From Octopus vulgaris (lineage: Eukaryota), in contig OX597830.1 in NCBI GenBank assembly GCA_951406725.2, positions 9,238,001-9,302,000 on the forward strand: a stretch of 64,000 nucleotides of DNA, written 5' to 3'. This document shows, piece by piece, positions 13,016-60,050 of the stretch; within the stretch, counting starts at the first letter, position 1; the number at the start of each line of letters is the position of its first letter. The notes under the pieces are model-generated. The model was not told where the DNA came from. It did no database searches and saw nothing but the letters and a program-made list of their open reading frames with translations. A program made the translations under genes and the position numbers.

Positions 13016-13560
13016 AAGGCGGCGAGCTGGCAGAAGCGGTAGCACGCCGGGCGAAATGCGTAGCCGTATTTCGCCTGCCGTAACGTTCTGGGTTCAAATT
13101 CCTCCGAAGTCGACTTTGCCTTTCATCCTTTCGGGGTCGATTAAATAAGTACCAGTTACGCACTGGGGTCGATATAATCGACTTAATTCGTTTGTCTGTC
13201 CTTGTTTGTCCTCTCTGTGCTTAGCCCCTTGTGGGTAGTAAAGAAATAGGTATTTCGTCTTTCGGAGTCGATAAATTAAGTACCTGTTGCGCACTGGGTC
13301 GATGTAATCGACTCAATCCCTTTGTCTGTCCTTGTTCGTCCCCTCTATGCTTAGCCCCTTGTGGGCAGTAAAGAAATAAGAAACGTTAGCACGCCGGGCG
13401 AAATGCTTAGCGGTATTTCGCCTGTCTTTACATTCTGAGTTTGACTTTGCCTTTCACCCTTTCGAAGTCGATAAATTAAGTACCAGTTACATACTGGAGT
13501 CGATCAAATCGACTGCCACTCCCTCCCCTAAACTTTCGGGCCTTGTAAAGTAGAAAAGAA
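13016..13560 (+). mobile_element. SINE family A (tRNA-like head, GCCTTTCATCCTTTCGGGGTCGAT central domain), multimer
   Basis: Head AAGGCGGCGAGCTGGCAGAA, B-box GGTTCAAATTCC; three partial units in tandem. Confidence 0.9.
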
Positions 13561-13923: not shown

Positions 13924-14571
<648 letters not shown>

Positions 14572-14640: not shown

Positions 14641-15123
14641 ATAGTCAATAATAAAAGGGTAAAATTGATTAATTATTAATTAACTTTACCAAGTAGTGTT
14701 CACTATGTAAAAAGACCATTTACGGTATATTTAAAACATTACGTTATATAATTAGGGTTCAGTAAAATAATTTACATTACCACACACCGAACTTTTAGAA
14801 ATAGCAGCCAAAAAATTTAGCTATTTCCTCTACTATAAGAAGAGTTAACGAAATCTTGTGCTGGTGACAGGAATGTTGATATAGGTATGTATTTCTAGCA
14901 TCTCTATATCTAACTAACCCAGAAACGGCGTTCTCAAGTAATCGATGTAAGTGTGATCTTTCGTTATTTTTCCCTCTATACCTACGTGAATTGTTTTTGA
15001 GTATACATTGTCTGGGAGACTTTTCTTATAGTAGAAGAAACAGCTAAATATTTTGGCTGCTATTTCTAAAAGTTCGGTTTGTGGTAAAGTAAATTTTTTT
15101 TACTGAACCCTAATCATATAACG

Positions 15124-15127
<4 letters not shown>
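14641..15127 (-). mobile_element. Fold-back element: tail plus ~108 bp imperfect arms
   Basis: Arms 14738-14845 and 15019-15127, tail 14641-14737, TA flanks. Confidence 0.8.
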
Positions 15128-15214
<87 letters not shown>

Positions 15215-15699
15215 CTTATGTGTCTGTGTTTGTCCCACCCAACATCGCTTGAGATCCGATGCTGGTGTGTTTACGTCCTCGTAACTTAGCGATTCGGTAA
15301 TATGAGACCGCTAGAATAAGTACTAGGCTTAAAAACAATAAGTCTTTGGGTCGATTCATACGACTAAAGGCGGTGCTCCAGCATGGCCACATCAAATGAC
15401 TGAATAAAATAAAAGAATGAAAGAAAATATATATACTACAAAGGAGTGTACTTACTTGTACTTGTGGCGACATTCACCCTGGGCGGCTTGAGTCGGCTTC
15501 TTCTACCACCCTCGAGGGTTGGAAGAAGTTTCGTGAGAATATGTGGATTTCACAAGCGGTCCCCAACAATCCCGCATGTAGAGACATCCTGTTTGCCGCA
15601 GATTGTCCGCAGACGCAGGGACAGAACGACTGAGGAACCGCCAGTTGCCGAAACAGACACTCCGAGGATTTTCGTCTGCCGGGTTGTGGCCCTAATACC

Positions 15700-15931
15700 T
15701 ATTTCTTTATTACCCACAAGGGGCTAAACATAGAGGGGACAACCAAGGACAGACATAGGTATTAAGTCGATTACATCGACCCCAGTGCGTAACTGGTACT
15801 TTAATTTATCGACCCCGAAAGGATGAAAGGCAAAGTCGACCTCGGCGGAATTTGAACTCAGAACGTAACGGCAGACGAAATACCGCAAAGCATTTCGCCC
15901 GGCGTGCTAACGTTTCTGCCAGCTCGCCGCC
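15700..15931 (-). mobile_element. SINE family A monomer with 16 bp TSD
   Basis: TTGTGGCCCTAATACC at 15684-15699 and 15932-15947. Confidence 0.9.
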
Positions 15932-16299
15932 TTGTGGCCCTAATACCACTCGGTGTCAGACCAATCCGCCTTGGGTGGCCCTACCAGGAACTGAAGTTCC
16001 CAACGGCATAGTTCTGACACTACCCGTTGCCAGCGTCCCCAGCGTCCCCACCACGGTGAGGAGGGGATGGGCTTTGGAGACGCAAAGGAGGGTGGCTAAG
16101 TGGTAAGGATATTAAGCTCAGGATCGAAAAGTCGTGAGTTCAATTCGCAAATGCACGTTGTGTCTTTATACAAGATACTTTAATTCACATTTTCCCAATC
16201 CACTCAGCTGGCAAAAATGAGTTGTACTCGTAATTAAAAGGGCCAGCCTTGTCACATTCTGTGACACACTGAATCTCCCTAAGAAACTACATTAAGACT

Positions 16300-16863
16300 A
16301 TTTTCTACTCTAGGCACAAGACCCTAAATCTTTGGGGAGAGGGTCAGTTGATTAGATCGACCTCAGTACGCAACTGGTACTTAATTTATCAACCCTGAAA
16401 GGATGAAAAGCAAAGTCGACCTCGGCGGAATTTAAACTCACAACGTAACGGCAGACGAAATACCTATTTCTTTACTACCCACAAGGGGCTAAACACAGAG
16501 AGGACAAACCTATTAAGTCGATTATATCGACCCCAGTGCGTAACTGGTACTTAATTTATCGACCCCGAAAGGATGAAAGGCGAAGTCGACGTTGGCGGAA
16601 TTTGAACTCAGAACGTAAGGACGGACGAAATACTTATTTCTTTACTGCCCACAAGGGGCTAAACACAGAGGGGACAAACAAGGACAGACAAACGGATTAA
16701 TCCGATTATATCGACCCCAGTGCGTAACTCGTACTTATTTAATCGGTCCAGAAAGGATGGAAGGCAAAGTCGACCTCGGCTGAATTTGAACTCAGAACGT
16801 AGCGGCAGACGAAATACTGCTGAGCATTTCGCCTGGCGTGCTAACATTTCTGCCAGCTCGCCT
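16300..16863 (-). mobile_element. SINE family A trimer nested in a family C SINE (~16075-16935)
   Basis: Three tandem units; TSD-like AAACTACAT(T/C)AA on both sides. Confidence 0.9.
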
Positions 16864-23282: not shown

Positions 23283-23623
23283 AAAGATTGATTAAAAGAT
23301 AGATGGATATAGAAATGTATGTACGTACGTATGCATTATGTTCGTATGTATGTGTGTATGTATGTATGTATGTATGTATGTATGTATGTATGTATGTATT
23401 TATGTATGTATGTAAACTTTATTTCTTACCACTCGAGAAAGATACAGTTGCTAAAATCCAAGGCTCTTTCACTAGAATTTCAACATGGACAGGATAGATA
23501 CGCATGTATGCGTGAATTCATGCAAGTATTTGGCATCAATACACATGCAGATCTGTATGATTTGTTTTATATATATATATAAACTCATGCATGCAATTGC
23601 ATATCTACACATGTGCGTATGTA

Positions 23624-23995
23624 CAGGGTGATTCAAAAGTCGCCATACATAGGAACAATTTATCTTTTTATAAGAAACAGTTTATAAGAACAGTTTGCTT
23701 TTTTTATTATCTAACTGGTTCTATATGGTGACCATTGATTTGAATACACATTGCAATACGTTAACCCCACTCATTGGGAACTTGTAATTGCACATCTGGT
23801 GATACGTGTACAAAGGAGTTGGTGATGCGTTCCTTCAAATGATTTATGTCTTTTATCTTTCTGTGATACACCATTCAATTGCCCCCAAAGATAGAAATCA
23901 AGAGGGGTCAGATCAGGGGATCTAGGGGATCTTATAAACTGTTTCTTATAAACAAATAAATTTTTCCTATATATGGAGACTTTTGAATCAGCCTG
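23624..23995 (-). mobile_element. Tc1/mariner-superfamily deletion derivative (MITE)
   Basis: TA|CAGGGTGATTCAAAAGTC...GACTTTTGAATCAGCCTG|TA with ~65 bp TIRs; minus strand encodes SPDLTPLDFYLWG. Confidence 0.9.
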
Positions 23996-23999
23996 TATT

Positions 24000-24921: not shown

Positions 24922-24983
<62 letters not shown>

Positions 24984-25172
24984 AAAATAGTAAAGTGTGA
25001 AAAAACGACAGAAGGCTTAAATGTTAAAAAAAATATATATTTGTGTCAAAATGTCTGGAGAATATTGGAAAAAATTTTTTCCTTTCCTTAAAATGACATA
25101 ATTTTAAAATTTTTAAAGAAATTACCGGTTTCGCGTGTAGCTTAAATCATTAAATCATTAAATCATTAAATC

Positions 25173-25679
25173 ATTAAAAGCTACAAACAGCCTAAATCAC
25201 TTAAAAAGATTCTCACAAAGGCAAAATTGTCTTCTAAAATTACGGATGCAAAAGTAAAAAAATGTGGTAGATCGAACTGTGCAACATGTCCTAACCTATT
25301 GGAAGGATCAGAATTCTTCTTTAAAGAGGGACAGAAATTCAAGATCAAATCTAACTTTACTTGTGCCTCTGAAAACATAATTTATGTTATTAAATGCTCG
25401 GGCTGCCACCAAGACTACGTGGGTTCCACGGGACTATCACTCAGGCGTAGATGCACACTGCATCGACAACAGATTGCATTCCCAGAATATAGAATGATAC
25501 CTTTTAGTGAGCACATTGAGAAATGCGCAAAACAACTACTGCCACAATTTTTAATCTTCCCATTTTACCAATGTGCTTTCGGATCATCAACACAAATGAG
25601 ACTGAACAAGGAAACATTCTTCATTGAAAAGTACAAACCCAGACTCAACCATCCGAACATACTGACACAGAGAAATTAA
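25173..25679 (+). pseudogene. C-terminal GIY-YIG endonuclease domain of a PLE ORF (RT part lost)
   Basis: Open frame IKSYKQPKSLKKILTKAK...KKCGRSNCATC...FTCASENIIYVIKCSGCHQDYVGSTGLSLRRRCTLH...RLNKETFFIEKYKPRLN*. Shows the Cys-rich linker, IIY/YVG motifs and conserved R, H, E, N typical of Neptune-clade PLEs. Confidence 0.9.
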
Positions 25680-25814
25680 CAAGGAAAAGGGAAAAAAATT
25701 TTTAAGCGATTATCTCCCTTACACCGGAAGAAATCACTCACTACCTCCCCTTATTTAGAAATCTCCTGAAAATAAACACAACGATAACTCCATGCAATAT
25801 AAACATAACGTCAC

Positions 25815-25854
25815 AAGAAATTTGAAAAGCTACACGCGAAACCGGTAATTTCTT
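25815..25854 (+). ncRNA. Minimal type I hammerhead ribozyme, U3:A8 core variant
   Basis: AAGAAAU-UUGAAAA-GC(UACAC)GC-GAAAC-CG-GUA^AUUUCUU: 7 bp stem I, palindromic ACCGGU stem III, located in the PLE 3' UTR. Confidence 0.75.
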
Positions 25855-26007
25855 TAAAAATTTAAAAATTATGTCATTTTAAGGAAAGGAAAAAAATTTT
25901 TCCAATATTCTCCAGACATTTTGACACAAATATATATATTTTTTAACATTTAAGCCTTCTGTCGTTTTTTCACCCTTTACTATTTTCTTATATACCAAAC
26001 AAACTTT

Positions 26008-26089
<82 letters not shown>

Positions 26090-27742: not shown

Positions 27743-27886
<144 letters not shown>

Positions 27887-27989
27887 CTACTAATATAGGA
27901 TGAAGTTTTTTCTCTACAGAAAAAATTCCATCAAGAAATGTGGCAGCATATTAAAATACCTTTACGGTTAAAATTATAAACAACTTATA

Positions 27990-29039: not shown

Positions 29040-29430
29040 TATATAAAAGTGAAGTTGTGTGTCTGTCTCCTACGATTTAGATTCCTAACTACTCCCACAT
29101 TTTGCGGTGCAGTTTAACCAAAACCGGGTATCTTGTAGTCGTGATTCATATCGAGCCCTTCTGGGTATTAGCGCGCGTCTACGATGAGTCTACGATTTAA
29201 AAAAAATTTACCATCATTTTTTTCCATTTTAATGCATTTCTTCGCTATTATATAAGGGAAGTAACTCTCTAAAAATGTCTACGAAGAGTCAACGATTAAA
29301 AAAAAAATTACCATCATTTTTTGTCCGTTTTTTATGCATTTTTTTGCTATTTTTTTGGCTATAACTCTCTAAAAATGCTTATATAGTTATTTCCCTTACA
29401 AACCCGAGCAACGCCGGGCGATACTGCTAG
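29040..29430 (+). mobile_element. Non-autonomous Helitron-like element
   Basis: 5' ATATAAAAGTGAAGTTGT; 3' hairpin CCCGAGCAACGCCGGG then ATACTGCTAG|T; internal tandem duplication (~29175-29278 and ~29278-29375). Confidence 0.8.
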
Positions 29431-29962
29431 TAATGAATATAAGACTTAATTTATTAAACAAAGTTCAATAAATTTAATCAAATAAATGAAACAAAGCAGA
29501 TTAGATGTTGAAATGGATTATCCTTTCATTTCATAATCCTAGACAATTGTTTCTGACAAAAAGGACCAAGCTTTCTATAAAGAAAGCATCATAAAGGTCG
29601 AATTTGTACTCTTCAATAGATGAGATTTAAAGGAAAATATCCAAAAAGACATTTAAAATATACATTGAATTTTTTTTATTAGTTATCATTATTATATAGG
29701 TATTTCTATATTCATTCTTCCACTCACAATAATTTGAATCAAGGCTATTGGTTATTTACCTTCAAATCCCACATGCTGAAGAGCACATATTCGACCTTTA
29801 TGATGTACTCTTTATAGAGATCTTGGTCCTTTTTGTCTGAAACAGTTGTCTTTGATTATGAATTAAAAGGATAATCCATTTCAACATCTAATCTGCTTCG
29901 TTTAATTTATTTGATGAAATTTATTGAACTTCGTTTAATAAACACAGTCTTATATTAATTAT
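29431..29962. mobile_element. Old fold-back element with diverged ~220 bp arms
   Basis: ~29435-29660 is an imperfect reverse complement of ~29740-29960. The arms carry YUGAAGA...GAAACA(A/G)UUGUC hammerhead-like motifs. Confidence 0.7.
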
Positions 29963-30060
29963 TATTTTTTTTACATACATTCATACCTATAAATAACAGA
30001 TGATGAAAAGACATTAGAAGTTAATGGAAAAAAATTCTGTTAAGGATGAAGATATATTCA

Positions 30061-30136
<76 letters not shown>

Positions 30137-30139
<3 letters not shown>

Positions 30140-30805
30140 AAAAATACAAAATGGGACAAGAACGCAAAATACACAAAGAGACGACACAAAAAACGGACGG
30201 GTCATTCGAAGCCTCTAATCTTCAGTCAAGAACCGGATCATCCTCGCAATTTCGGCTGATTAATCTTGAGATTGCTCCAATCTGGCCAGCCCCAACGAAA
30301 AACTAAGCTACGAGCATTAGATTTCATGGAAAAAGGATCGAATGTATACGAACAAGGACAGAAAAACGGACGACGCCACACCAATATAAATACAAAAAAC
30401 AAAAATAAAATTAAAACAAGAATGGTAATAACAGGACAAAAACAGCGGGTGTCTTACGACTTTAGACAATTTAACTTAGCTGGCGTAGCCGCAAAGGCAT
30501 TTATTTAAAAATACGCGTCGTCCGTTTTTCTGTCCTTGTTCGTATACATTCGATCCTTTTTCCATGAAATCTAATGCTCGCAGCTTAGTTTTTCCTTGGG
30601 GCTGGCCGGATCGGAGCGATATCAGGATTAATCAGCCGAAATTTGCTAGGATGATCCGGTTCCTGACTGAAGATTAGAGGCTTCGAATGACCCGTCCGTT
30701 TTTTGTGTCGTCGCTTTGTGTATTTTGCGTTCTTGTCCCATTTTGTATTTTTATATATAATTTTTATACATATATTATTGCGGCGTAACGTACACCTTGT
30801 TCCCT

Positions 30806-30809
<4 letters not shown>
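30137..30809 (+). mobile_element. Fold-back element with ~240 bp arms plus tail
   Basis: Arms 30137-30376 and 30515-30755, tail to ~30809, TA flanks. A diverged single-arm relative lies at ~3560-3760. Confidence 0.85.
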
Positions 30810-35122: not shown

Positions 35123-35153
<31 letters not shown>

Positions 35154-35158
<5 letters not shown>

Positions 35159-35493
35159 TCATAAATAAGGGCAAACGAAAATATTTCTAATGCCAAATAA
35201 GCCGAAAAATTGGACATATTGTCCATTAACCATATAATTTCTTTCACAATACGCACGCTCCTCGAAAAAAGTTGGACAGAAATTTCTAAAGCGTGCGTAT
35301 TGTGAAAGAAATTATATGGTTAATGGACAATATGTCCAATTTTTCGGCTTATTTGGCATTAGAAATATTTTCGTTTGCCATTATTTATGAATTGTTTATA
35401 ATTTTAACCTTTAAATGTGTTTTTAATATGCTGGCCATTGATAAAATGTTTTTGGAAAAGAATTTTTTCGAAAAAAATTTTATCCTACATTAG
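35154..35493 (+). mobile_element. Fold-back element with 106 bp arms plus tail
   Basis: Arms 35154-35259 and 35290-35395, tail 35396-35493. A tail-only relative lies at 27886-27987 (-). Confidence 0.85.
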
Positions 35494-35514
35494 ATATATA
35501 TATATATGTACACA

Positions 35515-42621: not shown

Positions 42622-43020
42622 TCTTTTCTACTTTAGGCACAAGGCGTGAAATTTGGGGGAGTAGGATAGTCGATTTACATCGACCCCGGTGCTTCACTGA
42701 TATTTAATTAATCGACCCCGAAGAGATGAAAGTCAAAGTCGACCTTGGCGGAATTTGAACTCAGAACGTAACGACAGGCGAAATACCTATTTCTTTACTA
42801 CCCACATGGGGCTAAACACAGAGAGGACAAACAAGGACAGACACACGGATTAAGTCGATTATATCGACCCCAGTGTGTAACTGGTACTTATTTAATCGAC
42901 CCCGAAAAGATGAAAGGCAAAGTCGACCTCGGCGGAATTTGAACTCAGGACGTAACGGCAGACGAAATACCGCTAAGCATTTCGTCCGGCGTGCTAACGT
43001 ATCTGCCAGCTCGCCGCCTT
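42622..43020 (-). mobile_element. SINE family A dimer (a + strand copy lies at ~42320-42530)
   Basis: Two tandem units with GAAATACCTATTTCTTT junction. Confidence 0.9.
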
Positions 43021-43044
43021 AGTAATGATAATGATAATTATTAT

Positions 43045-46500: not shown

Positions 46501-46743
46501 TATAAGACGAATGACCACTAGGTGTATTCCTAATATGCCAAAGATAGACGGCATATGAAAACCCTTTTTCTTAGTGGTCAGACCATGTAGCGTCTACCAT
46601 TAGCATATTAGGTATCCACCTAGTGGTTATTCCACTTATACCTATGTAATATAATTTTCTGAATCTTCATTTTTTTTCAATATGCCAGGCCACTGGTTTA
46701 AATTTATATTAATCTAATTACTAGCAATTTGTACCCTATCATT

Positions 46744-52621: not shown

Positions 52622-53527
52622 TTATCTAGTTTAAGCTCACAAGCTGTGGCCATGCTGGGGCACCGCTATTTGGTGTTGCTACATGATTCTACTTCACGAA
52701 TGCTTTTTAGCAATTGCCATTTGGTGCATGAGAGAGTTTGATGCAGCTGCCCTCATCTGCCGTGAAGTTGGTTCATCTGAGACACCTGACAAGAAGAGAT
52801 CCAATTTTAATTTAAAGACATCTGCATCCACCCCATGCAAGTCTCTTAGGTTCTTCGGAGGATATTTGGAGTCCTTGGCACTATGCAGTGGCGCCCAGTT
52901 CTGGCATTTGTGTAATTCTCGATGCCAAAGTTTGGGACAAGTCCTTCTAGGATCTTTCAGATGTATATTACGGCATATCTTTCTCGCCTACGCTCTAAGG
53001 AATAGAGTCTCAATCTCTTGAGTCTTTCCCAATAGCTTATATGCTGCACAGAGGCTATCTTCTTCGTGTAGCTTCGTTGGATCGCCTCAAGTTCCGTGAT
53101 TAACTTCACACTGGATGGTGACCATAGCTGAGAGCAATAGTTAAAGTGGCTTAGGACAAGTGTCCTCCAGAGGACCATCATGGTTTCCTGGTCTCTTGTT
53201 CTAAAGGTTCTAAGAATCCATCCGGTCAGCCGCCTACATTTCATTGCGAATTTAGCAACATGCACGTGAAAAGTTGCATAATCATTCATGTAAATACCCA
53301 GGTCTCGCACTGACTGTGCCTCTGGGATTGCAATCCCTCCAGGTCCGGTGTATTTATTGGGTATTGCATTTAGTTTTGCATGCTGATAGCATAAAGCTTG
53401 AAACTTTTTCAGCATTGAACTGCATGCTATTCTTTTCAGCCCACTTATATATTTTGTCCAGCTCACATTGCAGGTGCTTAGTGTCTTCAGGGTTCTGTAT
53501 TGCCTGTGAAACTTTTGTATCATCTGT
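52622..53527 (-). mobile_element. 5'-truncated CR1-group LINE (RT C-terminus plus 3' UTR)
   Basis: ORF 52957-53523 VRDLGIY...WILRTF...YCSQLWSP...LEAIQR...YWERLKRLRLYSLERRRER; (TA)n on both sides. Confidence 0.9.
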
Positions 53528-53571
53528 ATATATATATATATAAATATATATATTTATATATATATATATAC

Positions 53572-53632
<61 letters not shown>

Positions 53633-53652
53633 GTGTGTGTGTGTGTTTGTGT

Positions 53653-53890
53653 GCGTGGCTTAGTGGTTAGGGTGTCAGCACCATGATTGTAAGATTGTGG
53701 TTTCGATTCTTGGACCGGGCGACGCGTTGTGTCCTTTAGCAAAACACTTTATTTCACGTTGCTCCAGCCCACGCAGCTGGCAAAGATGAGTAATGCTGCC
53801 ATGGACTGGCGTCTCGTCCAGCTGGGGAACACATACGCCATAGAAACCGGGAAACCGGGCCCATGAGCCTAGCTAGGCTTTAAAAGGGCG
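53653..53890 (+). mobile_element. SINE family C, alternative tail (copy also at ~56977-57213)
   Basis: Same head and central domain, tail GATGGACTGGCGTCCCGTCC...AAGGGCG. A third tail type occurs at ~10560-10856, 35905-36200 and 48368-48680. Confidence 0.85.
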
Positions 53891-58064: not shown

Positions 58065-59294
58065 CGAGGGGTACTCAAAAGTAACCGGAAACGTTCTTTG
58101 TGAGACAAGCTCATTGTAGTTCAGGCTTTCGCCGCTTGATGCGACCTTCAGATATCAGTTTGCTGACCAAAGTCGTCAACTGATGTCGTAGTTCCACGTG
58201 ATGCGTCTTTCTTTCGCAGTGTTTCTCCCCTATTCATCGACTTTGTGATGCATCGATGAAATTCTGTTTTCTGCTGGGGAAAATGGCTGCCAAAATAACC
58301 GTCATGCTTCAAACAGCTTACAAGGACACTGCTATGAGCAAATCACAAATTTACGTGTGGTCGCTTGTCGCTTCAAGACCAACCTCGATCAGGATCTCCC
58401 GAACGAATGGAAAGATCATGAAAGTTCATGAACTCATCTTGGGGGACAATCATCTAACAAGTGACGAACATGTTGATATGACTGGTGTGTCTTGGACCTC
58501 CTACCAACGAAATTTGAGCTATGTCTTTATTGCCCACAAGGGGCTAAACGTAGAGGGAACAAACAAGGACAGACAAAGGGATTAAGTCGATTACATCTAC
58601 CCCAGTGCATAACTGGTACTTCGGAATTTGAACTCAGAACGTAACGGCAGACGAAATACCTATTTCTTTACTACCCACAAGGGGCTAAAGACAGAAAGGA
58701 TAAACAAGGACAGACAAACGGATTAAGTCGATTATATCGACTCCAGTGCATAACTGGTACTTATTTAATCGACCCCGAAAGGATCAAAGGCAAAGTTGAC
58801 CTCGGTGGAATTTGAACTCGGAACGTAACGGCAGACGAAATACCGCTGAGCATTTCGCCCGGCGTGCTAACGTTTCTGCCAGCTCACCGCCTTCAACGAA
58901 TTTTGAACGAGGAATTGCGAATGAAAAGAGTTGTAGGGAAATTTGTGCCTCGCTTGCTCACAGAAGATAATCAGCAGTCACGGCTGAATGCGTGTCGTGA
59001 ACTGAAAGACCAGTTGGAGATTGACCCGGATATTTTTTACGAAGGTCATCACTGGTGACGAAAGCTGGTGCTATGGAATTTGCAGAAGTGGAAGAGACAA
59101 AGAAAAAAAAAAAAATGATGGAGGCGTTAAAAGGCATCACTTCGCGAGAGTTCCAGCACTGTCTCGAATTGGGGAAAACGCGTCGGAACCGATGCAAGTG
59201 GAGAATACTTTGAAGGTGATAAAAGTGTAAACATGTAAAACTAAGTGAACAGAATAATATTGCAAAATTCCGGTTTCTTTTGGGTACCTCCTCG
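58065..59294 (+). mobile_element. Internally deleted mariner element with nested SINE
   Basis: TA|CGAGGGGTACTCAAAA...TTTTGGGTACCTCCTCG|TA; fragments KFCFLLGK..MLQTAY, KFVPRLLT, VITGDESWCY. Confidence 0.9.
58518..58893 (-). mobile_element. SINE family A dimer inside mariner
   Basis: TSD CAACGAA(A/T)TTTGA at 58505-58517 and 58894-58906. Confidence 0.9.
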
Positions 59295-59357: not shown

Positions 59358-59414
<57 letters not shown>

Positions 59415-59416
<2 letters not shown>

Positions 59417-59696
59417 AAATTAATTAAGGGTAGAAATTGATATTTATCAATTAAGACCAGTGGTCTAGCATATTAAAAAAGAATCCGAAGATTAAAATAT
59501 TTATATATACCAATTAAGGACTGAACACGAAAAGTGGACAGTCAACATGCTAGATATAGACGTCAAATCGCCATTCTCCACAAAAGATTATGTTCTCAGA
59601 TCAAAGATCTGAGAACATAATCTTTTGTGGAGAATGGCGATTTGACGTCTATATCTAGCATGTTGACTGTCCACTTTTCGTGTTCAGTCCTTAATT

Positions 59697-59698
<2 letters not shown>
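59415..59698 (-). mobile_element. Second copy of the same fold-back family, 93 bp arms
   Basis: Near-identical to 14137-14324. Arms 59510-59602 and 59606-59698 with a 3 nt loop (AAA). Confidence 0.9.

Positions 59699-60050
<352 letters not shown>

Follow-up and report, generated by a model that had tools for sequence, protein, structure and literature searches.

The window analysed here, 64,000 nucleotides of Octopus vulgaris DNA (contig OX597830.1), is AT-rich and rich in microsatellites. Near 59.5 kb, an exact-match scan for hairpins found two 93-bp arms without a single mismatch around the loop AAA; the arms reach 101 bp if the TA run flanking each of them on the outside is included. The same scan found a sister copy near 14 kb with 136-bp arms, also without mismatch, around a 13-nt loop. 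The longest exact arm did not exceed 13 bp in any of 30 doublet shuffles of the window, as against the 136 bp of the real sequence. The two copies are 98.4% identical over 189 nt and have the same layout, consisting of a (TA)n tract, a segment of about 93 nt on one side only, an arm, the loop, the inverted arm and a second (TA)n tract (Table 1). The one-sided segment, which we call the tail, differs at one position between the copies. Both the tail and the (TA)n tracts on either flank of both copies had been overlooked in an earlier note on this DNA. The outer ends are identical and the inner ends different in the two copies, and the tail-less arm stops where the other copy carries an internal 8-nt TA run. 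There is no microhomology at the turn of the 59.5-kb hairpin. Tails and arm folded no better than shuffled sequences (z -1.5 to +0.1).

Table 1. Coordinates of the 59.5-kb hairpin, its sister copy, and neighbouring inserts and repeats in the window.
Feature	Coordinates	Strand	Basis and remarks
(TA)n tract, left flank, putative target	59364-59411	.	sequence
Putative 3' extension (tail), one side only, about 93 nt	59417-59509	-	comparison with 14-kb copy
Internal TA run mimicking the target	59502-59509		last 8 window bases of the tail
Tail-bearing arm, 93 bp	59510-59602	-	hairpin scan, arm alignment; putative 3' end of element, pseudo-LTR equivalent
Loop, 3 nt	59603-59605	.	arm alignment; matches the bases into which the tail-bearing arm runs on in the longer 14-kb copy
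Tail-less inverted arm, 93 bp	59606-59698	+	hairpin scan, arm alignment; no difference from its partner arm
(TA)n tract, right flank	59699-59753	.	sequence; common to the 59.8-kb insert
Sister copy	14138-14516	-	tail 14138-14230, arms 14232-14367 and 14381-14516, 13-nt loop, (TA)n on both sides
25-kb insert	24976-26010	+	inverted 168-bp arm (4 mismatches between arms), 5'-truncated ORF end, arm, 16-nt tail, (TA)n on both sides
59.8-kb insert, unrelated to the 59.5-kb family	59752-59947	+	60-bp perfect arms, 11-nt loop, tail of about 65 nt
Insert of another family	14644-15127	-	related tail of about 90 nt, arms with 8 mismatches in 108 and one gap
Insert of another family	30133-30808	+	arms with 11 mismatches in 244 and one gap, 138-nt spacer, tail of about 50 nt
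Insert of another family	35150-35495	+	weakly related tail, arms with 2 mismatches in 110, 30-nt spacer
Older insert	46501-46743	+	related tail, arms with 8 mismatches in 50, 40-nt spacer
SINE-like repeat copies	13016-13260, 15694-15933, 16624-16862, 42772-43021, 58649-58893	both

The earlier note had proposed that the arms of such hairpins are made anew at each insertion. Its observation that the two copies turn back at different points was borne out by the exact-match scan, and the turn is no more constant beyond the family, since spacers across the eight inserts of like anatomy described below measure 3, 11, 13, 30, 40, 138, 173 and 683 nt. The bases that tell the copies apart are indeed mirrored in the alignment of the four arms: both 14-kb arms carry T at 14292 and A at 14298, and both 59-kb arms carry C and T, the sole other arm difference being that the right arm at 14 kb lacks one C at its outer end. 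The four arms, from two copies only, were grouped by locus at these two sites, and no site set left arms apart from right arms.

That the mirrored bases are specific to each copy did not hold. We aligned 14134-14380 to public contigs of 4 of the 24 listed runs, the three large ones being DNA or unclassified, and recovered 1385, 1666, 1254 and 110 family contigs. The 59-kb allele C at 14292 occurred in 51, 61 and 49 contigs of the three large runs and the allele T at 14298 in 53, 52 and 45, and a third haplotype was present among loose contig ends. The mirrored bases are standing subfamily variants that mark source subfamilies. Because they occur family-wide, they demonstrate a common source subfamily for the two arms of a locus but not a common molecule, so that the earlier claim of a single template molecule at integration agrees with the data only as far as an origin from one source. 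Random pairing would give the observed two-copy concordance with P between 0.001 and 0.16, depending on run and linkage and with summed depth, itself unreliable, as a rough allele share; the concordance is suggestive, not decisive, of one source subfamily per locus.

Both ends of the element recur in these contigs. Among the matches listed, the tailed end lay at 14136-14146, and the tail-less end lay at about 14218 with TA-type flanks in at least 15 contigs each of runs X11 and X2; such an end was not among the matches listed for run X1. Strand-change joints were listed in none of the four runs, which carries little weight because contigs drop rare, single-copy junctions. A 22-nt arm pattern had no match in metagenome, viral or prokaryote genome contigs, so that these yielded no copy of the family longer than those in the window.

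The anatomy is not confined to this family. The hairpin scan gave 25 distinct local inverted pairs. Ten were aligned, and eight of these (at 14.2, 14.7, 25, 30.1, 35.1, 46.5, 59.5 and 59.8 kb) combine a hairpin with a one-sided tail; two more pairs were viewed and resemble oppositely oriented dispersed repeats. Seven of the eight inserts have (TA)n of at least five units on both sides, although such tracts make up 6.9% of the window. The arms are without mismatch in the three short-loop inserts (0/93, 0/136 and 0/60). In the other five they differ by 2-16% (Table 1), which means that arms drift apart after insertion. The pair at 23.6 kb was dropped from the set for its Tc1-like terminal repeats and lack of a tail, and that at 29.4 kb for its unclear left end.

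Compared with the 59-kb tail, the tails of about 90 nt at 14.6 and 46.6 kb scored above all 500 shuffles, the score of the 35.4-kb tail was equalled by three of 500, and the tails at 25, 29.9, 30.7 and 59.9 kb showed no relation to it in the same test. Related tails of about 90-100 nt were seen on otherwise unrelated arms at 59417-59509, 14644-14737, 46641-46743, 35400-35495 and 27886-27981; they have in common one motif in the centre and, close to the 3' end, a short one rich in C. A GT, possibly a splice donor, lies near the start of most of them; no acceptor for a tail as a retained intron was found among the loose contig ends listed. The segment 27886-28015 comprises a tail and about 45 nt of an arm; it is related to the 35-kb family, has no inverted copy and adjoins a putative Tc1-type transposase remnant.

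Other repeats of the window include a short element at 23622-23997, bounded by terminal inverted repeats of 68 bp, of which 62 match, and with ends that we presume to be Tc1/mariner-like. There is also an old inverted repeat at 29428-29964 (187 of 217 matching, 103-nt spacer), after which come about 100 nt and (TA)n; its left end adjoins what is presumably a Helitron-like 3' terminus. Broken frames at 52957-53659, interrupted by (TA)n, resemble the C-terminus of a LINE reverse transcriptase, albeit with no reverse-transcriptase (RT) match in Pfam. A dispersed SINE-like repeat of about 240 nt is present in many copies about 90% alike and in both orientations.

Two of the eight inserts carry markers of Penelope-like elements (PLEs), whose endonuclease-bearing members encode a telomerase-like RT and a GIY-YIG endonuclease in one ORF. 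The ORF remnant of the 25-kb insert (25164-25679) encodes a CX4CxxC linker and an intact C-terminal GIY-YIG domain (Pfam E 0.004, below the cut-off). A precomputed RT domain is present in four of six longer homologues, and homologue P0002 has an RT followed by a C-terminal GIY-YIG. Judging from its coding sequence, the 25-kb insert is a 5'-truncated Neptune-type PLE. At its junction (about 25136-25185), an 8-mer slipped four-fold lies in an 8-nt mini-hairpin, whereas the relative P0001 has this 8-mer singly. The 59.8-kb insert shares a (TA)n tract with the 59.5-kb hairpin and lies in the opposite orientation. It contains what we take, by eye against the hammerhead consensus, to be a minimal hammerhead-like motif, which only the tail-less arm has in full. 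Its 8-bp stem I folds, the 5' end of the motif lies at the turn, and the tail-less copy exceeds the tail-bearing one by about 10 nt; PMC4209133 provided the hammerhead context. By analogy with the ORF polarity at 25 kb and the hammerhead polarity at 59.8 kb, the tail would be at the 3' end of the element. The 59.5-kb feature would thus be read on the minus strand and the inverted copies would stand head to head, in both copies of the family.

This anatomy and the analogy with the marked neighbours suggest that the 59.5-kb hairpin is likely a 5'-truncated PLE insert. PMC8557442 describes heavy 5' truncation, a 5'-truncated inverted copy placed at the 5' end and a 30-40 bp tail at one end as typical of PLEs, and a preference of Neptune and Naiad elements for microsatellites such as (TA)n. 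Both copies of the 59.5-kb family have an inverted 5'-truncated copy, a one-sided tail and a (TA)n tract at either flank; their 3' ends are fixed, and the point of 5' truncation varies between them. Head-to-head inverted pseudo-LTRs (pLTRs) with junction palindromes, read there as self-priming, were reported in PMC3846280, and inverted pLTRs with 3' extensions serve as curation marks of PLEs (PMC8969392). Furthermore, the median length of PLE insertions newly arisen in Chlamydomonas is 128 bp (PMC9977147), and recently active Penelope families are known from Octopus vulgaris, palindromes not being discussed in the accessible part of that paper (PMC13282606). The accessible parts of PMC12602865 and of bioRxiv 10.64898/2026.07.22.740005 added nothing to this picture of PLE insertion. 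Against membership, the 93-nt tail is longer than the published 30-40 bp, and the group of related tails is unrelated in sequence to the tails of both PLE-marked inserts. In tblastn, six PLE proteins matched only the 25-kb insert, giving no RT or endonuclease for the 59.5-kb family, and a PLE protein yielded 79 candidates and no confirmed locus in metagenome contigs. Canonical PLEs (Penelope/Poseidon, Neptune, Nematis and Hydra) carry a hammerhead ribozyme motif in the pLTR. Neither a hammerhead descriptor nor Rfam found one in 243 nt of the family, where the motif may lie beyond the truncation; this negative is weak, since the descriptor, which gave two matches elsewhere in the window, also missed the 59.8-kb motif. 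The best 150 of 455 Rfam hits, all microRNA models, included no gathering-score match.

Among the known groups, Neptune PLEs, with a C-terminal GIY-YIG and a CX2-5CxxC linker, resemble the 59.5-kb family in the (TA)n target, the inverted 5'-truncated copy and the one-sided tail, and have the linker and the C-terminal endonuclease in common with the 25-kb neighbour. They differ in their 30-40 bp tail as against about 93 nt, and neither ORF nor hammerhead was seen in the 59.5-kb family. Naiad PLEs, as described in PMC8557442, also combine a (TA)n target, inverted repeats and a tail, and they lack a canonical hammerhead, of which the 59.5-kb family likewise shows none in the 243 nt examined; however, they are reported there as old remnants in cephalopods, whereas the family studied here looks young, and their hallmarks are an N-terminal endonuclease and a CxC motif; a coding sequence was not found for this family. 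Penelope/Poseidon elements, such as Adineta Pen2a (PMC3846280) and Anolis PAc (PMC11167929), are similar in their head-to-head inverted pLTR, junction palindromes and two RT starts bounding the tail, and unlike the 59.5-kb family in having a 31-40 bp tail, a hammerhead within the pLTR and target-site duplications that can be discerned. What we observed at 59.5 kb is a known PLE habit and not a new system. What may be new is minor, namely a young family whose tail is long and whose tail-less end shows target-like microhomology, and which may already have a name in Repbase or Dfam.

In L1 twin priming, two nicks prime two cDNAs that become joined head to head, giving inversions without duplicating the same segment, whereas the two arms of this hairpin span one and the same 3' end. 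We consider it quite probable that the hairpin is of PLE origin and that its arms were made at insertion, by twin priming or by fold-back. About an even chance falls to twin priming at the (TA)n target, with aborted cDNAs of a PLE source RNA joined head to head. The GIY-YIG nuclease of the element would nick both strands of the (TA)n target, and each nick would prime reverse transcription at one or the other of two fixed positions close to the RNA's 3' end, namely the tail end and, for the tail-less end, the internal TA run. Both arms would come from one source RNA in one insertion event; both cDNAs would stop early at a variable point and be joined at their 3' ends, leaving a repeat arranged head to head around a loop that is small and variable.

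Fold-back shares the PLE origin and is a serious, if less probable, contender. The tail-primed cDNA would prime itself at its 3' end and copy itself to the internal TA run, where it would be cut or annealed to the other end of the target. Loops of 3, 11 and 13 nt in three of the eight inserts and the 8-nt local hairpin around the slipped 8-mer at the 25-kb junction suit fold-back at least as well as twin priming. Moreover, in three of the four inserts that could be oriented (59.5, 14 and 25 kb, the 14-kb case from two contigs), the loop or spacer is part of the tail-bearing copy, and self-priming was inferred from junction palindromes in PMC3846280. However, the turn at 59603-59605 offers no base pair from which it could be primed, and the longer tail-less copy at 59.8 kb is impossible by fold-back of a tail-primed cDNA, although this length argument depends on the putative hammerhead motif, and the difference could reflect a later inversion of the loop. 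The Anolis PLE protein nicks and extends both strands in vitro and starts reverse transcription at two RNA sites bounding the tail, the later steps being left unvalidated there (PMC11167929); its start has no homology to the target, whereas the tail-less end here lies at a TA run, which speaks against twin priming. On balance, we slightly favour twin priming over fold-back. A copy-level test of the two in PLEs was not found in the literature searched, which had few subscription journals and in which PMC3846280 alone proved relevant.

Explanations that do without a PLE, or without arms made at insertion, fare considerably worse. A microsatellite-targeting MITE or foldback DNA transposon, copied whole as a ready-made palindrome whose centre was partly lost later, seems improbable. 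It would account for the high copy number (1254-1666 contigs in each of the three DNA or unclassified runs), TA-targeting MITEs and Mutator-like elements of plants are likewise short, high-copy inverted repeats within (TA)n, and the 59-kb copy could formally be derived from a 14-kb-like copy by central deletion. Such elements, however, have terminal repeats and a fixed centre, whereas here a 93-nt tail lies outside one arm and the turn differs between the two copies; a deletion would have to have yielded a tighter palindrome, and like anatomy in the neighbours encloses a GIY-YIG remnant and a hammerhead-like motif. Slightly less probable again is the alternative raised in the earlier note, that arms unlike at insertion were homogenised in place through cruciform repair or intra-strand conversion. 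Perfect arms are confined to the three inserts whose loops are shortest, which leaves a small opening for loop-dependent conversion, but the divergence of the arms in five of the eight inserts disfavours it, and no conversion is needed since the mirrored bases are standing family variants and not new mutations. Very unlikely, finally, is an artefact of fold-back chimeric reads or mis-assembly: it would fit the lack of a listed strand-change joint in all four contig runs, but both ends are defined by the family and turn up again in independent runs, only one side has the tail, and older hairpins have diverged arms.

The proposal that each insertion makes its arms anew is thus probably correct, yet already described for PLEs. 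Tentatively, and with some doubt, we may be looking at a young and very abundant group of PLE-type families whose tail, of about 90 nt, is unusually long, conserved and free of a hammerhead, and in which both strands of the target are primed, one of them by annealing of (TA)n to the internal TA run.

Such PLE stubs are easily mis-annotated as MITEs or as microRNA hairpins; the 14-kb hairpin indeed obtained an Rfam score against mir-2513, albeit below threshold. The divergence between the two arms should date each insertion, as with LTR pairs. How PLE integration is completed was described as unresolved in PMC8557442 and PMC11167929, and a young family of high copy number is good material for studying how PLEs finish integration. 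If the long-tailed PLE group proves true, its many junctions would settle between twin priming and fold-back in vivo.
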